Shown here one piece after another: positions 9,401 to 59,239 of a DNA stretch of 64,000 nucleotides. Each line of letters opens with the position of its first letter. Position 1 is the stretch's first letter. The notes beneath the pieces are model-generated. The model was not told the origin of the DNA and made no database searches. It saw only the letters and a program-made list of their open reading frames with translations. Position numbers and translations under genes: made by a program. This stretch comes from Candidatus Moraniibacteriota bacterium (lineage in GTDB: Bacteria; Patescibacteriota; Minisyncoccia; Moranbacterales; GWC2-37-73): the NCBI GenBank assembly GCA_013336225.1, contig JAAXUC010000003.1, positions 9,564-73,563 on the forward strand, in the 5' to 3' direction.

Positions 9401-11185
9401 GCTACCAAAGCTCAAATAGAAGTATTCACCAGTCCAACCTTGAGTGCTGACACCTTGGTGGCAACAACTCCGATTGAATCAGAATTTGCAGTGGTGCACA
9501 CCATTCATCTTTCTGGACTTACCAGTGGCACTCAATATTATCTCAAAATCACCGCCACTGATTCCTCAACCGCTGACAATGAGGGTCGAACCGGTGTTCT
9601 TGCTTATAGTGCTGATGGAATTCCAACTCTGTCTTTCTCCACTCTTGGCACTCTTAAAACCATCAGCAATATCGATGAATCAATCGTCACTGATTCCAAG
9701 GCTGTCATTACATTTGTCACCGACCAAGATGCTAAATGTTACATTGACTTTAAGGACTCGCTCAGTGCAACCTATAATGATCTCTCAGACAGTTTGGAAA
9801 AAGATTTCTATAAGAATCATTCCATCACACTGACGCAGCTTCTTTCCAAGACAGCCTATGACTACAAGATTTCTTGTATCGATAAAAATGATGTCACAGT
9901 GACAGCTGATGAACATCACTTCACAACAACTGAGAAAGGTTTAACTCAAGGTGATGTGGATGCTCAATCTGACAATACTGCTCCTGTGATCAGCAGTATT
10001 TCTCTGGACAAAGTGACAGGGGAAAGCGCCACCATCACTTGGAACACGGATGAGGCGGCGAATAGTCTTATCTTATATGAAGTTGAAGGCTCAGATTTTA
10101 CGATAGTGGCTGGCGATGCAATTGTGATTTCTGACATTAAGGAATATGCAACAACTCATTCAGTGGCCATCAATAATTTGATTCCTGCAACAAAATACAC
10201 CTTCATTTCAATGTCAACTGACACAGGCGGAAATATTGCGCAGTCTTCGCAATCATCATTCACAACCAAGCAACCATCTGGTCTTTCCTCGGTGAAAGTT
10301 GTTTCCAAAGCTCTTGGACAAGCCACAGTGACCTGGACAACAGGACAAGCGGTTTCATCCTTAGTGGAATATGGGCTAACCACGGGATATGGGGATAAAA
10401 AAGAGAGCAATACAAAAGTAAAAGAACATGAGATTACAATAACTGACCTTAAGGCTGGTGAAGAATATCATTTGCGCGTCAAAGGAACGAGTGACGCTGG
10501 TGAACTTTTTGCATCCTCCGACATTACTTTCCAGCCCAAGGCTCCTCCAAAAATTTCAGATTTCAAGATTGATGAAATTACAGAACACGGCGCAACTGTG
10601 AAATTCAACACCAATGTTCCAACTGATTCACTGATAACCTATACCGATGCTGATAAAGAAGAAAATTCAGGCTTTCAAGGAAAACCAGAAGTTGCAACCA
10701 AACATGAAATGCAACTCAAAAACATGGAAAGTGGAAGAACGTATGGAATTAAGTTGAAAGTTCGCGATGAAGAAGGCAATGAAACTGAAGAAACTTTCCA
10801 GAATTTCACCACTACTAAAGACGAGAAACCTCCAGTGATCGATCGCGTCAAAACTGATGCAGCCTTGACCCAAACTGACAAAGTTCAAGCCATCATCTCT
10901 TGGACCACTGATGAAATGTCCACCGGAGAAGTGATTTACAAAGAAGGAAAAACAGGAGACGAAAAGAAATTTGAAGTGAACAGTTCTCCAAGTTTCTCAC
11001 ACATCGGAGTCATCACCAGTTTCAAAGCTGGCGTCGTGTATTACTTCAAAGTCAAATCAATTGATCAGGCTGGCAACGTTGCCAATTCAACTGACTACGC
11101 TGTGCTTACTCCCAAGAAAAGACAAAACATCATTCAGGTCATCATTGGAAACTTCACCGACATCTTCGGTTGGGCTAAGTTTTAG
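3440..11185 (+). CDS. Giant (2581 aa) surface protein: signal/anchor, 6-bladed NHL-repeat beta-propeller, Gly-rich region, many Ig/Fn3-like domains
   Basis: Single uninterrupted ORF. The N-terminal hydrophobic segment is ISILVFLLCANMSSAA. There are six ~40-aa NHL-type repeats (…LYVSDSGNNRILKRSADGTTWT…), a Gly-rich block (GGGGGSGACVSS…) and repeated Big/Fn3-like modules. The C-terminal 600 aa is paralogous to CDS 1..1813. Confidence 0.85.
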   Translation: MNKVKMKKIAKQEFDSVKKKLFSLGIISILVFLLCANMSSAAVNSATYDSAIKSFAGVPSPTYETMSWVSSDGRQGDLLAGVNLIISGLSPTTMTPYGVAVDSINNLYVVDYGNNRILKRSEDGTTWTNITISGLALNSFNSPFAVATDSVDNLYVSDSGNNRILKRSADGTTWTEITISGLTPSTFSNPNGTALDSIGNLYVSDSGNNRILKRSADGTTWTDIVISGLTPSTFSNPRDVKIDSSGVLYVADTTNNRILRRSADGTTWTNITISGLTPSTFNLPYRVTVDSSDNLYVSDLNNNRILKRSADGATWTKITITELTPGTFSQPVGLAIDRKGALYVGDYGNGRVIKLYSGTSITMRVRTGNATMSNAAAWSSSCDVASSGANIGIENPCVRSGDQYVQYQAILSTDVGINTPSLSSVTIATQTTYAQSFLNLISSPFNTGNANNSVQKITWSASNDAGSDPAQGTVQFQLRTSPDNVTWGQWCGPTACDAAPGGGVSDFYTDKAGATAINVAQKDSNGDQWIQYATFLKSNDGTTTPTLSNVTMQYAYNVPPAITIDSNPANLKQTSTGTFQVPYTLSETYDDLGVIAHGTAAAPIKALLFYQPKNDVTLNGATPSGQSTTAVTKIWGVGGTDGNTAAGNYTFTVPAGVTNIRDIELAGGGGGSGACVSSVLGGDGGASTLTYASLSRGVASGGTGSGYDGSVDACTTGNDSTATNIIGGVNTAGAGANGSTLGGGKGGLISGGSLAVTPGSQVNLIVGAGGIAATGGTAGNMGWIKITYDVTSEGAQTTGLVSINNPSNVPIPSTGSMLIDNELMTFDSVGATGNQRNITGRAATFATSYSTTAVSHTTSSPIFFATSASIQTIDTLIETDTPGAQATINNTFIWDPRADATNNLSGNKLDGALFKVVANDADASNFNTIGQSATTGAQTIDLQAPTITSITTDEAHTATGANILYLNKNSAQIPLTVNFSENISFDATGGKTITLTLNSGTCTIAESILNSNVATCQYAIGADEETPVGEKLKLAAPFVAASTAITDGFANTLTNFTPAANLDAATNIVIDNIAPTANDLTDIITKDQFTSANLNAQDSDGSGIASYAWSKVSGPGTITFGSSTASETTISANTDGPYVLQVVITDNSGNAITKTLNLIWDTTNPANISKPNVPSLTNDNTPNITWDQFTDANGLEKYEVQRKTDTVGDNFATIQTITDTATLETANPTFTESTLADDTYFYQIIATDKAGNVQTSPASDAMTVDTIAPTLLYFYSTSPDSTVLDPTASGNINLVAVYDEAVNTGNVQVRVGPMSATVNVTLDQVLETTKLQGSFTIGAPRTGYDTTPDPLKIEQILAQSVSDQAGNVQAQTLATIEDNMNLVARGNSIIIDTTPPILNSFTIENNSVTAFKQQNNAFTLVANYNKTIQAGGNLKVKLNTGSSSPEITLTNSAAGKKLTASYSVQADENANDLKVEAVLEQNVLDGKGAPANYIGNILDGTYAANAGDPVINLAGFQVDTAAPTLGATPIAIQNSNGKTSDSTPTITLSATDNFNLSKAIFSLNSGTAWCAPISYGTAINTFDITSIACGGSATNGIKTVTVKFVDAAGNESAASAASVEFDDSKPQLQTITTDTITGIYGPGTVIKIIATYDEAITSGSLSLILNNGKQLNLSTIENGNTLTATYTVGDLLEDTNKLKVATIVSQSVADTSEPVNTQDSTSLAGITENLDTNKTVEIDTTAPAATVTVDRSKDNNQIHLDATDKNSANMQAEILVLESETGTCSFTNNWISYADNVDTTLIENTASSRKVCARFKDELGNVSNEIAVIIPETPSGVQIDDISNSEIPFYGSMLTWSIPTIKGTNNGSGDAFAQYEIAKCGPSESEECTPDFAQFTSITDISRNYFVSDNLTAEKFYCYQMRFKDMHGDYSKLSKNTCFQAGHAPAVTDSQVSIISGNPDDIQIGNVTEQGATVFFQTKDSKYNRPIATKAQIEVFTSPTLSADTLVATTPIESEFAVVHTIHLSGLTSGTQYYLKITATDSSTADNEGRTGVLAYSADGIPTLSFSTLGTLKTISNIDESIVTDSKAVITFVTDQDAKCYIDFKDSLSATYNDLSDSLEKDFYKNHSITLTQLLSKTAYDYKISCIDKNDVTVTADEHHFTTTEKGLTQGDVDAQSDNTAPVISSISLDKVTGESATITWNTDEAANSLILYEVEGSDFTIVAGDAIVISDIKEYATTHSVAINNLIPATKYTFISMSTDTGGNIAQSSQSSFTTKQPSGLSSVKVVSKALGQATVTWTTGQAVSSLVEYGLTTGYGDKKESNTKVKEHEITITDLKAGEEYHLRVKGTSDAGELFASSDITFQPKAPPKISDFKIDEITEHGATVKFNTNVPTDSLITYTDADKEENSGFQGKPEVATKHEMQLKNMESGRTYGIKLKVRDEEGNETEETFQNFTTTKDEKPPVIDRVKTDAALTQTDKVQAIISWTTDEMSTGEVIYKEGKTGDEKKFEVNSSPSFSHIGVITSFKAGVVYYFKVKSIDQAGNVANSTDYAVLTPKKRQNIIQVIIGNFTDIFGWAKF
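3725..4505 (+). repeat. Six ~120-bp direct nucleotide repeats inside the CDS, encoding the NHL blades
   Basis: Segments such as caataatagaattttaaagcgtagtgcggatggcacaacctggac recur with ~120-bp period. Confidence 0.7.
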
Positions 11186-36408: not shown

Positions 36409-37458
36409 ATGGATATTAAAAAACTCGAAAATTTTTTGCAAGAAAATAACTTGCCCAAGTTTCGTCTGGGGCAAATTCAAAAAGCCATCTTTACTGATGG
36501 AGCTTTCTCATTTTCTGAAATTACCACTTTATCAAAAGAACTCCGAGAAAAAATGGAAAGTCAGTTGCGGTTGCTTTCCTTTGAAACTGAAAAAGTTTTA
36601 GTGGCTAAAGATGGGCAATCCATCAAGGCACTTTTGAAATTGCATGATGGAGATTTGATTGAAACCGTTTTGATCGCTCCCAAGCCTGGCATTTGGTCTG
36701 CTTGCATCTCTTGCCAAGTTGGTTGCGCAATGGGCTGTCGGTTTTGTGCAACTGGCAAAATGGGATTTAAGCGTGACCTGACTGCTGAAGAAATCACTGA
36801 TCAAGTTTTGTTTTGGAGGCAATATCTGAAACTAAAAGCTAAAAGCGAAAAGCTAAAAGCTGAGGAAGTTTCCACCATTGTATATATGGGAATGGGGGAG
36901 CCTTTTAATAATTGGGATAATGTTTCTGAGAGTATTAAAAATCTGACAGATGAAAAATTGTTTGGTTTCGGCTCGCGCTCAATTTCTGTTTCAACTTCTG
37001 GCATTGCAAGTGGGATTGAAAGAATGGCCAATGAGTTTCCTCAGATCAATCTGGCAATTTCATTGCATTTTGCCAGTGACAAAAAACGCGATCTCTATAT
37101 GCCAGTCAATAAGAAAGACAATTTGGAATCTTTAAAAAATGCACTGAAGGGATATTTCACCATCACCAATCGCAAAGTATTTTTGGAATATATCATGCTG
37201 GATGGAATTAATGACACCGCGCTAGATGCTAAAATGCTGGCAGATTTCATTTATTCCATTGGCAGCACTCATCTTTTACATATGAATCTGATTCGCTACA
37301 ACATGACCAGCGATCCGCCAGCTGGCGGACTGCAGCCTTCTTCCAAAACCAGAACGCAAATTTTCAAGCAGGAATTAGAGAAGCATCAGGTGCATGCCAC
37401 CATTCGAAAAAGTCTCGGCGAAGAAATTAAGGCAGCCTGTGGACAGTTAGCCTCTTAG
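36409..37458 (+). CDS. rlmN: 23S rRNA (A2503-C2) / tRNA methyltransferase RlmN (radical SAM)
   Basis: GCAMGCRFCATG radical-SAM motif and the conserved distal Cys. It contains an in-frame 9-bp tandem repeat insert (36829..36864; KLKAKSEKLKAEE). Confidence 0.85.
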   Translation: MDIKKLENFLQENNLPKFRLGQIQKAIFTDGAFSFSEITTLSKELREKMESQLRLLSFETEKVLVAKDGQSIKALLKLHDGDLIETVLIAPKPGIWSACISCQVGCAMGCRFCATGKMGFKRDLTAEEITDQVLFWRQYLKLKAKSEKLKAEEVSTIVYMGMGEPFNNWDNVSESIKNLTDEKLFGFGSRSISVSTSGIASGIERMANEFPQINLAISLHFASDKKRDLYMPVNKKDNLESLKNALKGYFTITNRKVFLEYIMLDGINDTALDAKMLADFIYSIGSTHLLHMNLIRYNMTSDPPAGGLQPSSKTRTQIFKQELEKHQVHATIRKSLGEEIKAACGQLAS

Positions 37459-37792: not shown

Positions 37793-37911
37793 GGTCCTTC
37801 TCCTTGGCATGGGATGTGCCTATTTAAGGCGAAATAGCGTGTAAATGAACAAATCTTAGTATAGCATAAAAAAATCACCATGTCAATAGTGATTTTTGTT
37901 TAAGCCAGGAA

Positions 37912-38307
37912 TCAATTTATGAATCCAAAGTGTTTTAAGGTTGGGATGATGTTTGGTGCAAGGCCTTCTTTTTCCAAATCTTCAAGTGGAATCCATTTCC
38001 ATTCGCGAATATCTTTGCCAGGAGAAACTTCTCCAATACGCTTGGCAAGATAATGCACGAGGATTACATCGATATCTCCATCCTCAGTTTTCTTAATTGT
38101 GTGCAATAAAAATGGAACAGGATTTGCAATTTCAATTTCAATCCCCATTTCTTCTTTAACTTTTTGTCTAGCAGTTTCGATTAGGCTCACTTCATAATTC
38201 TCCATTCTGCCACCGCAGAATTTCCAAAAAGTTGTATCTCCATGTTGATCAAGCAGGACTTTGTTGTTTTCAATAATTACTGGCCCTGACGCAATTATAA
38301 CTTTCAT
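37912..38307 (-). CDS. NUDIX hydrolase
   Basis: Nudix box GGRMENYEVSLIETARQKVKEEMGI, 131 aa. Confidence 0.75.
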   Translation of the reverse strand: MKVIIASGPVIIENNKVLLDQHGDTTFWKFCGGRMENYEVSLIETARQKVKEEMGIEIEIANPVPFLLHTIKKTEDGDIDVILVHYLAKRIGEVSPGKDIREWKWIPLEDLEKEGLAPNIIPTLKHFGFIN

Positions 38308-38406
38308 AATGATGAATATTAAATATTTAAGTTTAAGATGTATTTATACGAAATACAAAATACGAGATACAAAATACATTATACTTTCTTTATTTATATC
38401 ACGAAA

Positions 38407-40011
38407 CTATAAACTCTTCACCATATAGCTGTCGCGCAAACGATATCCACTCTTTTTGTAATAACCTCTCACGCCGATTCCTGAAATTACTACAATCTTC
38501 TTTAAACCAAATTCTTCTTTGGCAATTCTTTCAGCTTCAAGCAGAAGTTTTTTGCCAAAACCGATGTGCTGCGGAGAAGAATTGTCTTGCTTGTCTATCT
38601 GGGTCAATTTTCCATAGGTGTGAACTTCTCGAATGAGGGCTGCATTTTTAAGGACGGGCAAAAAATGCTCTTTGCTGTTGTTTGGAATTCGCAGACGCAG
38701 CAGTGCAAACAATTTTTTCTTATCGGGCGAAACGTATTGCAAGAATATTTCTTGGCCATCTGAGGCAGTATAATCAATGCGATCCAGGATCACTTTTTCT
38801 GCAGCAATAAAACCTCCTCCAACTTCGCGACAGCGAATGCAGGGACAGTTGGATTGGGGGATGATGATTTGGCGCAGATTTGAAATGGTTGGTCCAGCGA
38901 CAATGGATTGAGTTGGAACGTCGCGAATGAGGCGGGCGATGCGGACGTAGGGCACGATAGCTTCATTCTTTATCTTCACTACCAGCTTCTCAAAGGTCTT
39001 ATTTGTCAGTGGGACGTATTTTCCTTGTTTCCACGTCTGGTAGAGCACACTGTTTTTTAAAACGACTGTAGGGTATATTTTGAGCATGTCAGGCTGAAAT
39101 TCAGGGCCTTTAAAAAGGGCTTGAAACATCTTGAAATCGCGCGCAGGGGTTGATCCTGGCAATCCTGGCATCATGTGATAGTTGATCTTGAAACCAGCAT
39201 CCTTGAGCAGCTTGGTGGCTCGGATAGTTTCAGCGACCAGATGCCCGCGCTTGTTCAATTCGAGCACATCGTCATAGAGGCTTTGCACGCCAAGTTCAAC
39301 TCGCGTGCAGCCCAAATTCCTGAAATTAATGATTTCTTTCTCATCGATATAATCTGGACGTGTTTCCAGGGTGAGTCCAATAATTCGGTGCTCTGCAGTT
39401 TCATTTTTCTTCTGTTCAAATGCCAATTTTTCCTGCGGAGACTTGATAAACTTTGCAACTTGATGGACTTTATGAACTTTTCCGTATTCGTTTGCTGCCT
39501 GAAAACAACGGGTGATGAATTTTTTTTGATAGGCTTTTGGCAAGAATGAAAAAGTTCCACCCATTACAATGAGTTCGATTTTGTCAGTTTTGTGTCCATT
39601 GATTTCCAATGAACGCAAACGATTTTGCATTTGCAAATATGGATCAAAATGTGAGTCGATCGCGCGCATCACCGCAGGCTCATTGGAAAGATAGCTTTTG
39701 GGCATATCTTTTTCACTGGGACAATAGATGCATTCTCCTGGACATGGATATGATTTGGTGAGCACTGCCACCACGGCCACGCCAGATTGAGTTCGAATGG
39801 CGCGACTAAGTAGGATTGCCTCAAAAGCTTTATTAGAAGCAACTTTCTTTTCTTTGACGAGCATATTATAGCGATCGCGCATGTCAGCATTGGTGGGAAG
39901 TGGAAGTTTATACTGCTTTGAAAGTTTTTTCTTGAGCTTTGAAAACTCTTCCTGGGTTTTAGGAAGCTCCGCAATTGCGCTTATTATATATTTATCGTAA
40001 AGTGAGTTCAT
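38407..40011 (-). CDS. elp3: Elp3-like radical-SAM / GNAT acetyltransferase (bacterial elongator protein 3 homolog; tRNA U34 carboxymethyl-uridine synthase-like)
   Basis: Radical-SAM CxxxxCxxC (SYPCPGECIYCPS) and a C-terminal GNAT (…GFGKKLLLEAERIAKEEFGLKKIVVISGIGVRGYYKKSGY). The ORF is open to 40074, but the first 21 codons are translated from the family-X repeat, so I prefer ATG 40011. Confidence 0.75.
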   Translation of the reverse strand: MNSLYDKYIISAIAELPKTQEEFSKLKKKLSKQYKLPLPTNADMRDRYNMLVKEKKVASNKAFEAILLSRAIRTQSGVAVVAVLTKSYPCPGECIYCPSEKDMPKSYLSNEPAVMRAIDSHFDPYLQMQNRLRSLEINGHKTDKIELIVMGGTFSFLPKAYQKKFITRCFQAANEYGKVHKVHQVAKFIKSPQEKLAFEQKKNETAEHRIIGLTLETRPDYIDEKEIINFRNLGCTRVELGVQSLYDDVLELNKRGHLVAETIRATKLLKDAGFKINYHMMPGLPGSTPARDFKMFQALFKGPEFQPDMLKIYPTVVLKNSVLYQTWKQGKYVPLTNKTFEKLVVKIKNEAIVPYVRIARLIRDVPTQSIVAGPTISNLRQIIIPQSNCPCIRCREVGGGFIAAEKVILDRIDYTASDGQEIFLQYVSPDKKKLFALLRLRIPNNSKEHFLPVLKNAALIREVHTYGKLTQIDKQDNSSPQHIGFGKKLLLEAERIAKEEFGLKKIVVISGIGVRGYYKKSGYRLRDSYMVKSL

Positions 40012-40019
40012 AGTATTTT

Positions 40020-40078
40020 TGTGGGAAAATTTTGAATTTCGAATAAAATCTGAATGATTTAATATTTGAAGCATTAAT
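40020..40078. repeat. Degenerate copy of the AT-rich palindromic element, family X
   Basis: ttttgaatttcgaataaaatctgaatgatttaatatttgaagcattaatacatt resembles 14503..14560 and 61488..61550. Confidence 0.45.
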
Positions 40079-40159
40079 ACATTATAAATTTAATCAAAAT
40101 TTTTGCTTCAAGCTTATCCCTTGGGGATAAAATTAAAAATTGGAAATTAGAGTTAATTT

Positions 40160-40918
40160 ATGAATCAGAAAACTGCAAATAAAATACTGTTAGAAACTGA
40201 GCAAGGTTATGATGATATTTCACAAAAATTCTCGCAGACGAGAAAGCATTTTTGGCGCGAGCTGGAATCTATAAAAGATTTTTGCGTCGAAAATGACAAG
40301 GTGTTGGATTTTGGCTGTGGTAATGGTCGGCTGCTGGATTTGCTTGCAGAAAAAAAAATCAATTATTGGGGCGTGGATGTTTCTGAAAAGCTGGTTGAAA
40401 TCGCCAAAGATAGGCATCAAAAGGACAATGTTGTTTTTGGAAAAATCAACCCCAGTCAAACAAGTCTAGCATTTGAAGCGGGATTTTTCAATACCATTTA
40501 TAGTATTGCTGTTTTTCATCATTTTCCTTCTGAAAAATATCGCCAAGAGGTGGCAAGTGAACTTTTTGAAAAAACAAAAAGTGGAGGGCGCGTGGTGATC
40601 ACGGTTTGGTATCTTTGGCAGAAAAAATATTTCAAAAATATTTTGCAAAATTGGAAAACTAAATTTTTTGAAACATTTATTTGCATGTCCAGCTTTCGTA
40701 GTGCTGGTTCACGACACGATAGTGGAGCGAAGAACTTGGATTGGAATGATTGCATGATTTCTTTTACGGATAATGAGGGAAGAAAATTTCAGCGCTTCCA
40801 CCATGCCTTCACTAAAAGGGAGTTGAAAAAACTTTTCAAAAATGCAGGTTTTGAAATCGAGAAATGTGAAATTGTTGAAGGGAGAAATATCATGCTGGTG
40901 GGCAAGAAAAAAGAATAA
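40160..40918 (+). CDS. Trm9/ALKBH8-like class I SAM-dependent methyltransferase (putative tRNA wobble-uridine methyltransferase)
   Basis: Motif I VLDFGCGNGRLL. Blocks YSIAVFHHFPSEKYRQEVASEL, RVVITVWYLWQ and RFHHAFTKRELKKL parallel yeast Trm9 (ISIAVVHHWSTRERR…, ALIYCWALEQ, RYYHLYREGEL). It is divergent from the Elp3 gene. Confidence 0.65.
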   Translation: MNQKTANKILLETEQGYDDISQKFSQTRKHFWRELESIKDFCVENDKVLDFGCGNGRLLDLLAEKKINYWGVDVSEKLVEIAKDRHQKDNVVFGKINPSQTSLAFEAGFFNTIYSIAVFHHFPSEKYRQEVASELFEKTKSGGRVVITVWYLWQKKYFKNILQNWKTKFFETFICMSSFRSAGSRHDSGAKNLDWNDCMISFTDNEGRKFQRFHHAFTKRELKKLFKNAGFEIEKCEIVEGRNIMLVGKKKE

Positions 40919-40966
40919 GACTATTGTCTTATCCTTTTGTGTTTTTTTAACATTGTTTTCCTTTTG

Positions 40967-41284
40967 TTAAATGAGTGGTGTGGAATTTTTTCCTAGGAGT
41001 ATTGCGGCTTTGCGAATTCCGCATTGCAACTTTTCAAACAAGGTTTTTGCATGAACATTTCGCAAGGCGCGGGGAATAAAATTTCTAAGTGCTGCTCTTT
41101 GCGGTTCACGCAGGGAATCGGTACAGGCGAAATTCAAAATTTTGTGATGAACATTCCCACAGAGGCATCTCACGATCAAAGTGTGCTTGAGTCGATTGAA
41201 TGGTTCAATATGAGCGTTGTCATCCGTGAGTAAAATCTTCTGGTTGGTTTGTGGGCAAACAATGGTAATGTTTGAATTCAACAT
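40967..41284 (-). CDS. Hypothetical small Cys-containing protein
   Basis: A strong SD (aaaaaggaggtggaaaATG) lies upstream. 105 aa, MLNSNITIVCPQTNQ…, family unknown. Confidence 0.5.
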   Translation of the reverse strand: MLNSNITIVCPQTNQKILLTDDNAHIEPFNRLKHTLIVRCLCGNVHHKILNFACTDSLREPQRAALRNFIPRALRNVHAKTLFEKLQCGIRKAAILLGKNSTPLI

Positions 41285-41308
41285 TTTCCACCTCCTTTTT
41301 CATGGATA

Positions 41309-41548
41309 TTAATCATTTATTAAAACTCGCGTGACCACTTTCTGGGATATTTTTTCCAAATCTTCCTTTGTTTGGTGGGCTGGTTTTTGTGGGAATAGTT
41401 CATGTCTTTTTTGCCAGAGAGACCAGAAGAGGATCGCGGCACATAAAATGAAGAAAAAGAGAAGCAGGCTGCCAAGCATTCGCATTAGTTGACTTGTGTT
41501 TTCAAAGATCTGAATCGTGCTTAGTGCAGCTTGCGTAGTATCTTGCAT
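41309..41548 (-). CDS. Hypothetical small membrane protein
   Basis: SD aaaaggagg upstream, one TM (LLLFFFILCAAILFWSLW), 79 aa. It is co-directional with the downstream 105-aa gene. Confidence 0.5.
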   Translation of the reverse strand: MQDTTQAALSTIQIFENTSQLMRMLGSLLLFFFILCAAILFWSLWQKRHELFPQKPAHQTKEDLEKISQKVVTRVLIND

Positions 41549-41659
41549 GGTCTGTTTCCTCCTTTTGATTTTTCCTTAAATTAACAGTATACTTTGATTA
41601 AGTCAATGAATTGTTTTCGGCAAACGCGTGAGTATTGAATTAGTAAATAAAAACAATAT

Positions 41660-42472
41660 ATGACAATTTTTCAAGCAATTTTCTTGGGAGTCTTGCAGGG
41701 GTTGGGGGAATTTTTGCCAATCTCATCCACGGCACATTTGATTTTGCTGCCCTGGTTTTTTGGTTGGGATGATCCTGGCCTTTCTTTTGATGTGGCTTTG
41801 CATGTCGGAACTTTGGTTGCAGTGGTGGCATTTTTTTGGCGCGACTGGCTTACTATTTTTCAGCTTTCGCTTCAAAAAATTTCAAATTTCAAATTTCAAA
41901 TTTCAAATTCTGAGGCGTACCCGCCTCAGTTGCTCTGGCTCTTGGTTATTGCCTCGGTGCCTGGGGCAATTTTTGGATTCATGCTGGACAATAAAGCGGA
42001 GGAAGCTTTTCGTAGTCCATTGCTGGTTGCATTTACACTTAGTGTGGTTGGTCTCGTTTTGTTTTTGGTTGATAAATATGCCATACATCGCAAGGAAATT
42101 GGAGCCATCACCAAAAAGGATGCACTTTTGATTGGTTTGTCACAAGCAATTGCCATTATTCCAGGCGTGTCACGTTCTGGCGCAACCATGACAACTGGAC
42201 TTTTCTTAGGTTTGTCGCGCGAGCAAGCCGCGCGTTTTTCTTTCTTGCTTTCTACCCCGATCATTTTTGGGGCAGCGATAGTGAAAGTACCTCAGCTATT
42301 CAGGGCTGGAATTACCATGCCGCTATTGTTTGGAATCCTGGCTGCCGCCATCAGTGGCTATTTCGCCATTAAATATATGTTGAAATTTATTGCGAAAGTT
42401 GGATACGCACCTTTCTTTTACTACAGAATTGTTTTGGCTGGCTTAATTGTATTGGTGTATTTCATGAAATAA
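41660..42472 (+). CDS. uppP: Undecaprenyl-diphosphatase (BacA/UppP)
   Basis: GEFLPISSTAHLIL signature, 270 aa. It contains an in-frame heptanucleotide repeat tract (41875..41910). Confidence 0.85.
   Translation: MTIFQAIFLGVLQGLGEFLPISSTAHLILLPWFFGWDDPGLSFDVALHVGTLVAVVAFFWRDWLTIFQLSLQKISNFKFQISNSEAYPPQLLWLLVIASVPGAIFGFMLDNKAEEAFRSPLLVAFTLSVVGLVLFLVDKYAIHRKEIGAITKKDALLIGLSQAIAIIPGVSRSGATMTTGLFLGLSREQAARFSFLLSTPIIFGAAIVKVPQLFRAGITMPLLFGILAAAISGYFAIKYMLKFIAKVGYAPFFYYRIVLAGLIVLVYFMK
41875..41910 (+). repeat. Tandem 7-bp repeat (aaatttc x ~4.5) inside the uppP coding sequence
   Basis: aaaaaatttcaaatttcaaatttcaaatttcaaattc encodes KISNFKFQISN. The unit length is not a multiple of 3. Confidence 0.8.
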
Positions 42473-45568: not shown

Positions 45569-45576
45569 TATGAATG

Positions 45577-45650
45577 TGGGCTTATCAAGATTCGAACTTG
45601 AGACCTCGTCATTATCAGTGACGCGCTCTAACCAGCTGAGCTATAAGCCC
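45577..45650 (-). tRNA. tRNA-Ile (anticodon GAU)
   Basis: The reverse complement folds as a cloverleaf: GGGCTTA-TA-GCTCAGCTGGTTAGAGC-G-CGTCA-CTGATAA-TGACG-AGGTC-TCAAGTTCGAATCTTGA-TAAGCCC-A. CCA is not encoded. Confidence 0.85.
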
Positions 45651-45666
45651 ATATTTTTACTTAATA

Positions 45667-45739
45667 TGGATCTTGTGGACCGGACAGGACTTGAACCCGC
45701 TACCTCCTCAGTGCAAGTGAGGCGCTCTACCAGGTGAGC
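45667..45739 (-). tRNA. tRNA-Ala (anticodon UGC)
   Basis: GGGCCGG…CCTCA-CTTGCAC-TGAGG…CCGGTCC-A. It has the G3:U70 alanine identity pair. Confidence 0.85.
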
Positions 45740-45760
45740 TACCGGCCCATATTATGCTTT

Positions 45761-57823: not shown

Positions 57824-59239
57824 CTAATTTAGTTTAGCCTCCAGATTCCAAATATTGGCCTTGGTGATTTGAACTTTGATTATTTTGCCGAGCAGATCTT
57901 TTTTCTTTGACTCAACTTTCACATTCTTTTGTGTCCTAGTCTTTCCAAAGTAGGAACCATTTTTTTCTTTTTCAATAATCACTTCCATTTTTTTTCCAAC
58001 ATATTTTTTATTATTAGTGAAGGCTGTTTTTTTGAGAATTTCATTGAGAAAATTTTCACGTCTGAATTTTTCAGCTTGGGAAACATCATCTTTTAAGCCC
58101 CAAGCCACTGTTTCTGGGCGAGGAGAAAATTGTCCAAAAAAGACCATGTCATATTTTGTTTTTTCCATCACTGTGGCAGACTGGAGAAATTGCTTCTTTG
58201 TTTCACCTGGAAAACCTACGATAATATCAGAAGAAATTGAAAATAAAGCAGCTGGTTTATGTTTCTTGAAAGCAGATTTTATTTTCCTGATTCTTGCCAG
58301 GTAATGTTTTTGGGTGTATTTGCGATTCATTCTGCGCAAAATTTCATCATCTCCAGCTTGCACAGGAAGGTGAATCCATTCGCAAACTTTTTTGAGCTTA
58401 GCAATGTTTTCAATGAGTTCATCACTCATATCCTTGGGGTGTGAGGAGACAAATTGAATCCAAAATTTTCCAGGAATGGCATTGATTTTTTTGAGTAATT
58501 CAGTGAATGTTAATGCTTTTGCTCCATGTTTCATGCTCCATGTTCCATGATAAGAATTTACATTTTGTCCGAGCAATGTAATGCTTTTGTATCCTCTCGC
58601 AATCAGATCTTTAACTTCTGTGATGATTTCTTCAGCAGGCCGAGAAACTTCACGTCCCCGGGCATTCGGCACTACACAATATGAACAGAAATTGTTGCAT
58701 CCAGTCATGATTGGAACGTAGGCGGAGAATGCGCTTTGATATTTTGGGTTTATTGATAAGTAATCTATTTTTTCTTTACTTAGGATATTTTTCGTATTTC
58801 GTATTTCGTATTTCATCCCTAGGATAAGCTTGGGGCAAATATTTTGTATTTTTGAATTCATATGAGATACGTCATACAAGATACAAGATACGGATTCAGG
58901 AAAGTTTTTGATTTCACAAAAAAGATCAACCTTAGTTTTCATGCGTTTTTGCACATCGGCTCGATTGGCCAGGCAGCCTGTCATAATGATAGCTTTTAGC
59001 TTCTGGCTTTTAGCTTTTAGCTCAGCTTTGCGCAAATTGTTGATCATGCTGTAGGCGCGATTTTCTGCGGTTTGTTTGATACCGCAAGTATTGAAAATGA
59101 CCAAGTCAGCATCCTGGATTTTTTCAGTTAAAGAAAAACCTTGCTCTTCCAAGAAAGTTGCGATGCGCTCACTGTCAGAAACATTCATTTGGCAGCCGAA
59201 AGTTTTGATGAAATATTTCATAAATCTGCAATGATTCAA
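57824..59239 (-). CDS. miaB: tRNA-i6A37 methylthiotransferase (MiaB-type radical-SAM MTTase)
   Basis: MTTase N-domain (IKTFGCQMNVSDSE), radical-SAM CNNFCSYCVVP, and a TRAM C-terminus. It contains two in-frame repeat insertions (58788..58892 and 58990..59027). Confidence 0.85.
   Translation of the reverse strand: MNHCRFMKYFIKTFGCQMNVSDSERIATFLEEQGFSLTEKIQDADLVIFNTCGIKQTAENRAYSMINNLRKAELKAKSQKLKAIIMTGCLANRADVQKRMKTKVDLFCEIKNFPESVSCILYDVSHMNSKIQNICPKLILGMKYEIRNTKNILSKEKIDYLSINPKYQSAFSAYVPIMTGCNNFCSYCVVPNARGREVSRPAEEIITEVKDLIARGYKSITLLGQNVNSYHGTWSMKHGAKALTFTELLKKINAIPGKFWIQFVSSHPKDMSDELIENIAKLKKVCEWIHLPVQAGDDEILRRMNRKYTQKHYLARIRKIKSAFKKHKPAALFSISSDIIVGFPGETKKQFLQSATVMEKTKYDMVFFGQFSPRPETVAWGLKDDVSQAEKFRRENFLNEILKKTAFTNNKKYVGKKMEVIIEKEKNGSYFGKTRTQKNVKVESKKKDLLGKIIKVQITKANIWNLEAKLN
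58788..58892. repeat. Family-Y AT-rich palindromic element inserted in-frame inside miaB
   Basis: ttcgtatttcgtatttcgtatttca … gagatacgtcatacaagatacaagatacgg. It encodes ~35 extra aa (…GMKYEIRNTKNILSKEKIDYLS…) in the linker before the radical-SAM core. Confidence 0.7.
58990..59027. repeat. 9-bp tandem repeat (gctaaaagc family) in-frame in miaB; the same repeat occurs in rlmN at 36829..36864
   Basis: agcttttagcttctggcttttagcttttagctcagc (minus strand: ELKAKSQKLKA). rlmN has aaactaaaagctaaaagcgaaaagctaaaagc (KLKAKSEKLKA). Confidence 0.7.

Follow-up and report, generated by a model that had tools for sequence, protein, structure and literature searches.

We analyzed a 64,000-nucleotide stretch (here called the window) of contig JAAXUC010000003.1, assembly GCA_013336225.1, from a bacterium of the Candidatus Moranbacteria in the Patescibacteria. 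In it, two genes lie head to head (coordinates in Table 2): a minus-strand gene for the radical S-adenosylmethionine (SAM) enzyme Elp3 and a plus-strand gene for a class I SAM-dependent methyltransferase. An earlier reading of this DNA from its letters alone (the original prediction) took the pair for a pathway that modifies wobble uridine 34 (U34) of tRNA, in which Elp3 makes 5-carboxymethyluridine (cm5U) and a Trm9-like enzyme methylates it to 5-methoxycarbonylmethyluridine (mcm5U). The route to mcm5U is attributed to eukaryotes and archaea. Both open reading frames (ORFs) are present at the coordinates given there and are transcribed divergently, with 85 bp between their start codons. Our comparisons of sequence and conservation make it highly probable that the two genes form a two-step U34 module of the archaeal/eukaryotic type in this bacterium: both identities hold, and the pair is conserved across Patescibacteria.

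The minus-strand gene encodes Elp3. Its product scores 556.4 bits against NCBIfam model TIGR01211 (cutoff, 350), covering model positions 8 to 522 of 522; it has the Pfam domains Radical_SAM and Radical_SAM_C and aligns over residues 80 to 554 with the solved Elp3 structures in the PDB (E = 4e-120 to 1.5e-96), among them those of M. infernus (4e-120), Dehalococcoides mccartyi (8e-115), and eukaryotes (∼1e-97 to 1e-100). The cysteines of the Fe-S motif are C111-x3-C115-x2-C118 (CPGECIYC), and the further Elp3 motifs are intact: GGT172, the linker cysteines C410-x-C412-xx-C415, and the acetyl coenzyme A (acetyl-CoA) motif QHIGFG at 502 in the lysine acetyltransferase (KAT) domain. These motifs, including the Cx3Cx2C spacing, are shared by all 67 of the 67 full-length Elp3 proteins from related loci of the candidate phyla radiation (CPR). 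The N terminus is a basic extension of the archaeal type (residues 1 to 95, ∼90 residues, with 19 Lys/Arg); archaeal Elp3 depends on such an extension to bind tRNA. The full Elp3 architecture that had been read from the sequence stands as far as the radical-SAM and C-terminal KAT (GNAT-type acetyltransferase) domains are concerned, but the cysteine motif is Cx3Cx2C and not CxxxxCxxC, the form found in M. infernus. Nor is the protein especially divergent, as had been suggested, given a score well above the TIGR01211 cutoff.

The methyltransferase required more work, because to the family libraries it is no more than a generic class I enzyme, so that its assignment to Trm9 needed other tests. 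Methyltransf_11, the Pfam family expected by the original prediction, is indeed among the matches, together with Methyltransf_23 and Methyltransf_25, but no Trm9-specific family is. Ubie_methyltran (PF01209) passes its gathering cutoff of 20.1 with 26.2 bits, the best NCBIfam matches are CpaM, BchM, UbiE, and UbiG, and the Joint Genome Institute (JGI) pipeline names several family members UbiE and some others TRM9 or alkB homolog 8 (ALKBH8). Cluster-member names for 10 distant family representatives were all uninformative. A generic or small-molecule methyltransferase of the UbiE/UbiG/BioC kind, standing beside elp3 by inherited synteny and without any role at U34, would account for such matches. 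However, all of the NCBIfam scores lie far below their cutoffs (for UbiE, 43 bits against 158 with TIGR01934 and 22 to 42 bits against 216 to 327 with the PRK00216 models), and structure-anchored searches point elsewhere. When the single sequence was compared with the PDB, the top match was Yarrowia Trm9 (5cm2_Z; 43.7 bits), and a narrow profile built from Moranbacteria only also placed Trm9 first, by a margin of only 2 bits. A broad family profile (A2; 53 species, down to 33% identity) searched against 177,635 PDB sequences again returned 5cm2_Z at the top, with 86.3 bits (E = 1.8e-23) and an end-to-end alignment (profile positions 26 to 232, the last, with chain positions 3 to 194). The runners-up, 1ve3 (75.5 bits) and 3sm3 (67.6 bits), lack the Trm9 signature residues, and UbiG/UbiE-type structures stay below 46 bits. 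UbiE and other small-molecule methyltransferases, which the original prediction had named as the competitors to beat, do not match better than Trm9. The C-terminal fragment searched alone gave no match in the PDB.

Profile-profile comparison and a reciprocal search agree with this result. Aligned by hhalign with 24 named fungal Trm9 sequences, A2 gave a probability of 99.95% and E = 1e-37 over 204 columns, at ∼25% identity. In the other direction, a hidden Markov model (HMM) of the fungal Trm9 alignment was run against 2,472 ORF segments (each ≥100 residues) from the window and 84 related CPR loci (1.4 Mb); it matched 85 proteins with 45 to 111 bits, all of them Elp3-adjacent methyltransferases (the window protein at 85.0 bits, E = 6e-25), and no other protein among these segments, even at E ≤ 10. 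The conserved blocks that had been cited as Trm9-like, IAVFHHF, VWYLWQ, and RFHHAF..REL, are aligned with the Yarrowia Trm9 segments SIAVIHHF, VWALEQK, and RYYHLY. An AlphaFold2 (AF2) model of the methyltransferase (pLDDT, 86.5; pTM, 0.84) has its highest target-normalized TM-score in the PDB, 0.83 by Foldseek, with the same Trm9 chain; the modeled fold alone would be no discriminator among class I methyltransferases. An extra insertion at about residues 155 to 195 is helical or disordered in this model, and its lineage-specific part at about 170 to 190 is modeled as disordered.

On the sequence evidence, the most discriminating test of Trm9 identity is that of the catalytic residues. Letoquart (2015; PMC4678810) reported that R29, D72, H116, W145, W168, R241, Y243, and N271 of yeast Trm9 (ScTrm9) are required for activity, and also assigned H115 and Y18 to the cm5U site. 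We mapped these positions through HMMER and hhalign alignments and counted their conservation in 148 family representatives (clustered at 50%; 30 to 62% identical to the window protein) (Table 1). The window protein has the SAM motif D50-x-GCGNG56 together with D73, and, apart from the SAM motif, the positions that are ≥95% conserved across 81 species coincide with these Trm9 residues, which argues against a generic enzyme. By analogy with yeast mutagenesis, Y17, R28, H120, H121, W150, F202, R212, H214, and N243 are predicted to bind cm5U.

Table 1. Trm9 active-site positions in the window methyltransferase and its family
ScTrm9 residue	Window residue	Family (148 representatives)
Y18	Y17	Y 140/148
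R29	R28	R 145/148
D72	D73	D 147/148
H115	H120	H 136/148
H116	H121	H 143/148
W145	W150	W 147/148
W168	F202	W 91, F 47 of 148
R241	R212	R 137/148
Y243	H214	Y 60/148 (plurality)
N271	N243	N 140/148

The residues also bear on a second candidate, CmoM. Like the proposed activity, CmoM methylates a carboxylate on the side chain of U34; its N-terminal block resembles the "DxIAxKFS" block of the window protein, and the window contains a U32-family protein that resembles the hydroxylase TrhP (386 bits; Table 2). The methyltransferase could then convert uridine 5-oxyacetic acid (cmo5U) to its methyl ester (mcmo5U) downstream of that hydroxylase instead of acting on the product of Elp3. Against this, the hhalign alignment of A2 with Escherichia coli CmoM scored 81.6 and spanned 135 columns, in the Rossmann core only and with the C-terminal half unaligned, whereas a single fungal Trm9 reached 168.5 over 201 columns. 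CmoM lacks the HH pair, an equivalent of W145, and both C-terminal motifs (R-Y-x-H and N), and it is not among the 25 best of the 40 NCBIfam matches of the methyltransferase. NCBIfam scans of the window did not find CmoA or CmoB, the TrhP match is below its cutoff of 534, and the conserved neighbor of the methyltransferase is Elp3, not TrhP. We consider CmoM the least probable of the alternatives, with hardly any chance of being right. The top PDB profile match, the hhalign result, the reciprocal HMM, the residues, and the conservation of the pair described below bear out the view that the protein is genuinely Trm9-like and not a generic methyltransferase; we conclude that it is a Trm9 orthologue, neither UbiE-like nor CmoM-like.

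To place the pair in a wider context, we used the family alignment as the query for a scan of 185,579 species, each represented by one genome, which returned 309 relatives. The best 80 all come from metagenome-assembled genomes (MAGs) of Patescibacteria, labeled Moranbacteria, Parcubacteria, Azambacteria, Buchananbacteria, Paceibacterota, or Minisyncoccia, with some labeled Saccharibacteria or Bdellovibrionales. The family itself comprises 583 clusters at 50% identity (E ≤ 1e-30), and its top 150 matches are all in-family. Of the 77 species-level loci that have space upstream, tblastn places elp3 directly upstream of the methyltransferase gene, in the opposite orientation, in 75; the loci are phylogenetically related, and this count overstates the number of independent events. 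The gap between the two genes is below 310 bp in most loci and 660 to 1,800 bp in five. Among close Moranbacteria the entire neighborhood is syntenic, as the generic-enzyme explanation would have it, and the pairing there proves little by itself. By ORF clustering around the pair, just two families persist in the 33 most divergent loci, in which the methyltransferase is <45% identical to that of the window: the methyltransferase is present in 33/33 and Elp3 in 32/33, while RlmN, NUDIX, and UppP are mostly gone as neighbors (NUDIX and RlmN, 9/33 each). The persistence of the pair where all other neighbors changed argues against inherited synteny alone. The pairing is far beyond chance and fits what two enzymes of one pathway would show. 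Since the pair outlives the loss of flanking synteny and the Trm9 HMM selects these proteins exclusively, a small-molecule methyltransferase without a U34 role is very improbable, if marginally less so than CmoM.

A third conserved neighbor of the Trm112, Ncs6/TtuA, or Kti12-like kind was not found by ORF clustering around the pair; only NUDIX is partly conserved. The NUDIX gene follows elp3 in 35/80 loci, a much weaker association than that between the methyltransferase and Elp3; its presence may reflect an accessory role or plain synteny. Some of the labels on the public records are probably unreliable. Loci L008, L010, L011, L018, L025-L027, L033, L036, L037, and L041 are labeled "uncultured Bdellovibrionales," and many of the third-party MAG records with this label show the Moranbacteria-type order RlmN-NUDIX-Elp3-methyltransferase-UppP; in loci L069, L071-L073, L079, and L082, labeled "uncultured Candidatus Saccharibacteria," only the Elp3-methyltransferase pair is shared, and the methyltransferase is 33 to 39% identical to that of the window. 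Two rare family members have unusual architectures: P0261 (520 residues) has ∼280 extra residues after a complete methyltransferase, and P0213 (284 residues) joins a truncated methyltransferase to an unrelated C terminus. Either could be a fusion or an assembly chimera.

The residues and domains suggest how the module would work. Following the chemistry described for archaeal and bacterial Elp3 (PMC6367351, PMC13315578), the basic N-terminal extension and the central cleft of the stand-alone Elp3 would bind the tRNA. The [4Fe-4S] cluster of the enzyme, held by C111/C115/C118, would cleave SAM to generate a 5′-deoxyadenosyl radical; this radical would abstract hydrogen from the methyl group of acetyl-CoA held in the KAT domain, and the resulting acetyl radical would add to C5 of U34, with hydrolysis giving cm5U34. 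The Trm9 orthologue, with an active-site constellation like that of yeast Trm9, would then use SAM to methyl-esterify the cm5U carboxylate to mcm5U34. In this scheme, R28 and H121 would position the carboxylate, R212 and Y17 would contact it, H120 and N243 would read the uracil, and W150 would stack on the base. Placed head to head, the two genes can probably be co-regulated from the single region between them, and from the gene arrangement the 85 bp between the start codons presumably hold both promoters. A consensus promoter and terminator scan of positions 37800 to 41700 gave counts about equal to the shuffle expectation and no convincing promoter in the 85-bp gap.

Comparison with known systems shows what is shared and what is particular to the CPR pair. 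With Trm9 of yeast and Yarrowia and the methyltransferase domain of human ALKBH8, the window protein shares the class I fold, the motifs Y..FSxTRxxxW, DxGCGNG, IAVxHHx, VWxxxQ, R-Y/F-x-H, and a C-terminal N, and the catalytic residues defined by mutagenesis; in the window family, the genomic partner is Elp3, the maker of the Trm9 substrate. The window protein differs in being bacterial, in its low identity, in its insertion, and in having no detectable Trm112 nearby. The archaeal Elp3 and Trm9 of Haloferax volcanii (HVO_2888/HVO_1032, with Trm112) likewise include a stand-alone Elp3 without Elp1/2/4/5/6, and M. infernus Elp3 shares the basic N-terminal extension and the linker Zn-Cys motif, with Cx4Cx2C in place of the Cx3Cx2C of CPR Elp3. 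The genes for Elp3 and Trm9 are clustered in Sulfolobus solfataricus (PMC2584109; PMC6144793). Physical clustering is thus common to the archaeal and CPR systems, but the CPR pair is strictly divergent, in at least 75 species, and its host is bacterial. The Elp3 of D. mccartyi (5L7J), the one bacterial Elp3 that has been studied, is also stand-alone and of the same two-domain architecture, but it lacks the N-terminal ∼90 residues (its alignment starts at query residue 92), whereas CPR Elp3 keeps the extension. Weak tRNA binding and activity are reported for the D. mccartyi enzyme (PMC7663514). MnmE/MnmG, which make the bacterial xm5U34, and CmoM have the same target, C5 of the wobble U34, and the same purpose, the tuning of decoding, with unrelated enzymes and chemistry.

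Several observations weigh against a cm5U-to-mcm5U module of this kind. According to PMC7663514, cm5U and mcm5U (xcm5U) have never been demonstrated in bacteria. By Foldseek E value, Trm9 ties with 3sm3, an uncharacterized archaeal methyltransferase. Two loci, L007 and L008, carry the methyltransferase (10001-10741 in each) without a nearby Elp3: no Elp3 was found within 10 kb upstream, and the upstream gene, of 417 and 828 residues, respectively, is on the same strand. At two functionally tested positions the window protein is substituted (Y243 by H214 and W168 by F202), and its subclade departs there from the family majority; the family mostly keeps the Trm9 residue, with the motif RYYHxF as in fungi. 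The remaining points concern Trm112, which eukaryotic and Haloferax Trm9 require and which archaeal Trm9 has been shown to bind. No Trm112/DUF343 protein was found among the 77 small ORFs of the window, and no Trm112/YcaR-type motif (CPxC..DGIPxL) in six-frame translations of the 1.4 Mb of related DNA, a regular-expression search and a weak test. The methyltransferase keeps some Trm112-contact positions of Yarrowia Trm9 (Yl), namely the beta3 strand (V92, F93) and YlF116 (F110), and has changed others (YlF78 to N68, YlV59 to K47, and YlD117 to N111). The last of these, the Asp that forms the salt bridge with Trm112 in all known partners, is Asp in 124/148 family members and Asn111 in the window protein.

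The original prediction had offered, speculatively, the small cysteine-containing protein encoded just downstream of the methyltransferase as a Trm112-like partner. The 105-residue ORF is a called gene with a strong Shine-Dalgarno sequence, as stated, but the proposed identity finds no support. It has no match to Pfam Trm112p/DUF343 (PF03966) at E ≤ 0.1, to any NCBIfam model at E ≤ 0.01, or to PDB sequences at E ≤ 10, and it does not contain a single CxxC pair; its single-sequence AF2 model is unusable (pLDDT, 37.9). The neighboring 79-residue ORF, upstream of it, encodes a hydrophobic helix and likewise has no Pfam or PDB match. By tblastn, neither ORF has a match in 83 related loci, all of which carry the methyltransferase. 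Both are probably real genes and form a lineage-specific insert between the methyltransferase gene and uppP; relatives have uppP or csoR right after the methyltransferase gene.

These differences raise the possibility of a true Elp3/Trm9 module with another end product, such as 5-methoxycarbonylmethyl-2-thiouridine (mcm5s2U), a 5-carbamoylmethyluridine (ncm5U)-type nucleoside, or partial cm5U, or of an enzyme in the Moranbacteria subclade (H214, F202, N111) that has altered specificity or is free of Trm112. The eukaryotic pathway gives ncm5U, mcm5U, or mcm5s2U depending on the tRNA (PMC3110198, PMC5699542); the window subclade deviates at three positions (Y243 to H, W168 to F, and the Trm112-contact Asp to Asn), and the searches for Trm112 described above were negative. 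On the other side, nothing in the sequence points to a different product, the carboxylate- and uracil-contacting residues of the Trm9 model are all kept, and the pair has no conserved thiolase neighbor (Ncs6, TtuA, or MnmA). We regard such a variant as unlikely, though less so than either of the other two alternatives, and retain the cm5U-to-mcm5U module as the preferred explanation. If it is free of Trm112, the system may be a variant of the known one.

MnmE and MnmG were reported missing from the window by the original prediction, and NCBIfam scans of all long ORFs together with tblastn bear this out. Neither turned up in a tblastn search of the window and the 84 CPR loci (1.4 Mb) with the E. 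coli proteins as queries, a search of very low power, as the loci are syntenic and each represents only ∼2% of a genome. It is conceivable, though on present sequence data doubtful, that in a large part of the Patescibacteria Elp3 and a Trm112-independent Trm9 make mcm5U34 and functionally replace the near-universal MnmE/MnmG, with a module that may have been acquired from, or be shared with, archaea.

The rest of the window is bacterial in its gene content, with NusG, L1, a bacterial-type leucyl-tRNA synthetase (LeuRS), threonyl-tRNA synthetase (ThrRS), GatB, DnaE, RNase J, MiaA, MiaB, RlmN, and UppP (selected features in Table 2). It is rich in genes for tRNA and rRNA modification: RlmN, MiaA, MiaB, the TrhP-like protein, Elp3, and Trm9. 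The RlmN homologue scores 300 to 307 bits with Cfr-family models, whose cutoffs (468 to 550) are far above, and a lower 297.5 bits with the RlmN model, whose cutoff it just passes. For the TrhP-like protein, the best NCBIfam match is TrhP (prephenate-dependent tRNA U34 hydroxylase), followed by UbiU at 203 bits; judged by this match, the gene may represent a second wobble-U34 C5 pathway, of the 5-hydroxyuridine (ho5U) type, in the same genome as Elp3/Trm9. The tRNA-Ile(GAU)/tRNA-Ala(UGC) pair, the usual site of which is the 16S-23S spacer, is isolated here, and no rRNA gene was detected across the 64-kb window. The giant ORF of 2,581 residues is preceded by a 600-residue ORF with a faint match to the MXYO-CTERM-anchored protein family.

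Table 2. Features of the window, with the Elp3-methyltransferase locus first
Feature	Position	Strand	Basis or remarks
Elp3 (radical-SAM + KAT/GNAT; predicted tRNA U34 C5-carboxymethyl synthase)	38407..40074	-	555 residues; TIGR01211, Pfam, and PDB matches
Divergent intergenic region, AT-rich, 85 bp between the two start codons	40075..40159	.	Sequence
Trm9-type predicted tRNA (cm5U34) carboxyl O-methyltransferase	40160..40918	+	252 residues; profile, hhalign, HMM, residue map
NUDIX hydrolase	37912..38307	-	Same strand as and directly downstream of Elp3; Pfam NUDIX, E = 2e-14
RlmN homologue	36409..37458	+	RlmN model, 297.5 bits (cutoff, 290)
Two small called genes (79 residues, then 105 residues)	40967..41548	-	AAGGAGG Shine-Dalgarno each; the 105-residue ORF is 40967..41284
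TrhP-like U32-family protein, 439 residues	12152..13471	+	NCBIfam TrhP, 386 bits, below the cutoff of 534
tRNA-Ile(GAU) + tRNA-Ala(UGC) pair	45576..45748	-	
Giant ORF, 2,581 residues	3440..11185	+	Preceded by a 600-residue ORF
MiaA	55418..56638		
MiaB	57824..59239		

In the Elp3 structural literature (PMC7663514, PMC6367351), the D. mccartyi enzyme is called "a rare example of bacterial Elp3s," and bacterial Elp3 is described as limited to Dehalococcoides. Our full-text literature searches found no paper joining Elp3 with CPR/Patescibacteria, none on MnmG with Patescibacteria, and none on CPR with tRNA modification and MnmE. The Elp3-Trm9 pathway is of a known kind, and the clustered pair is known in archaea, but its occurrence in Patescibacteria appears to be undescribed in the searchable literature. 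The annotation of these proteins, most of which are labeled only "methyltransferase domain-containing protein" or "UbiE," is corrected accordingly. The conserved pair, in at least 75 species of Patescibacteria, would carry the pathway into a major radiation of bacteria and makes a testable prediction, mcm5U in bacterial tRNA. For biochemistry and for structural work on tRNA complexes, it would also provide small Trm9 enzymes that may be independent of Trm112 and an Elp3 that has its N-terminal extension in full. If MnmE/MnmG are indeed replaced and the methyltransferase acts without Trm112, these organisms would be the first bacteria whose tRNA contains xcm5U, and their enzyme would be the first naturally stand-alone Trm9. 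The finding bears on decoding in bacteria with reduced genomes and on the sharing of genes between CPR and archaea.

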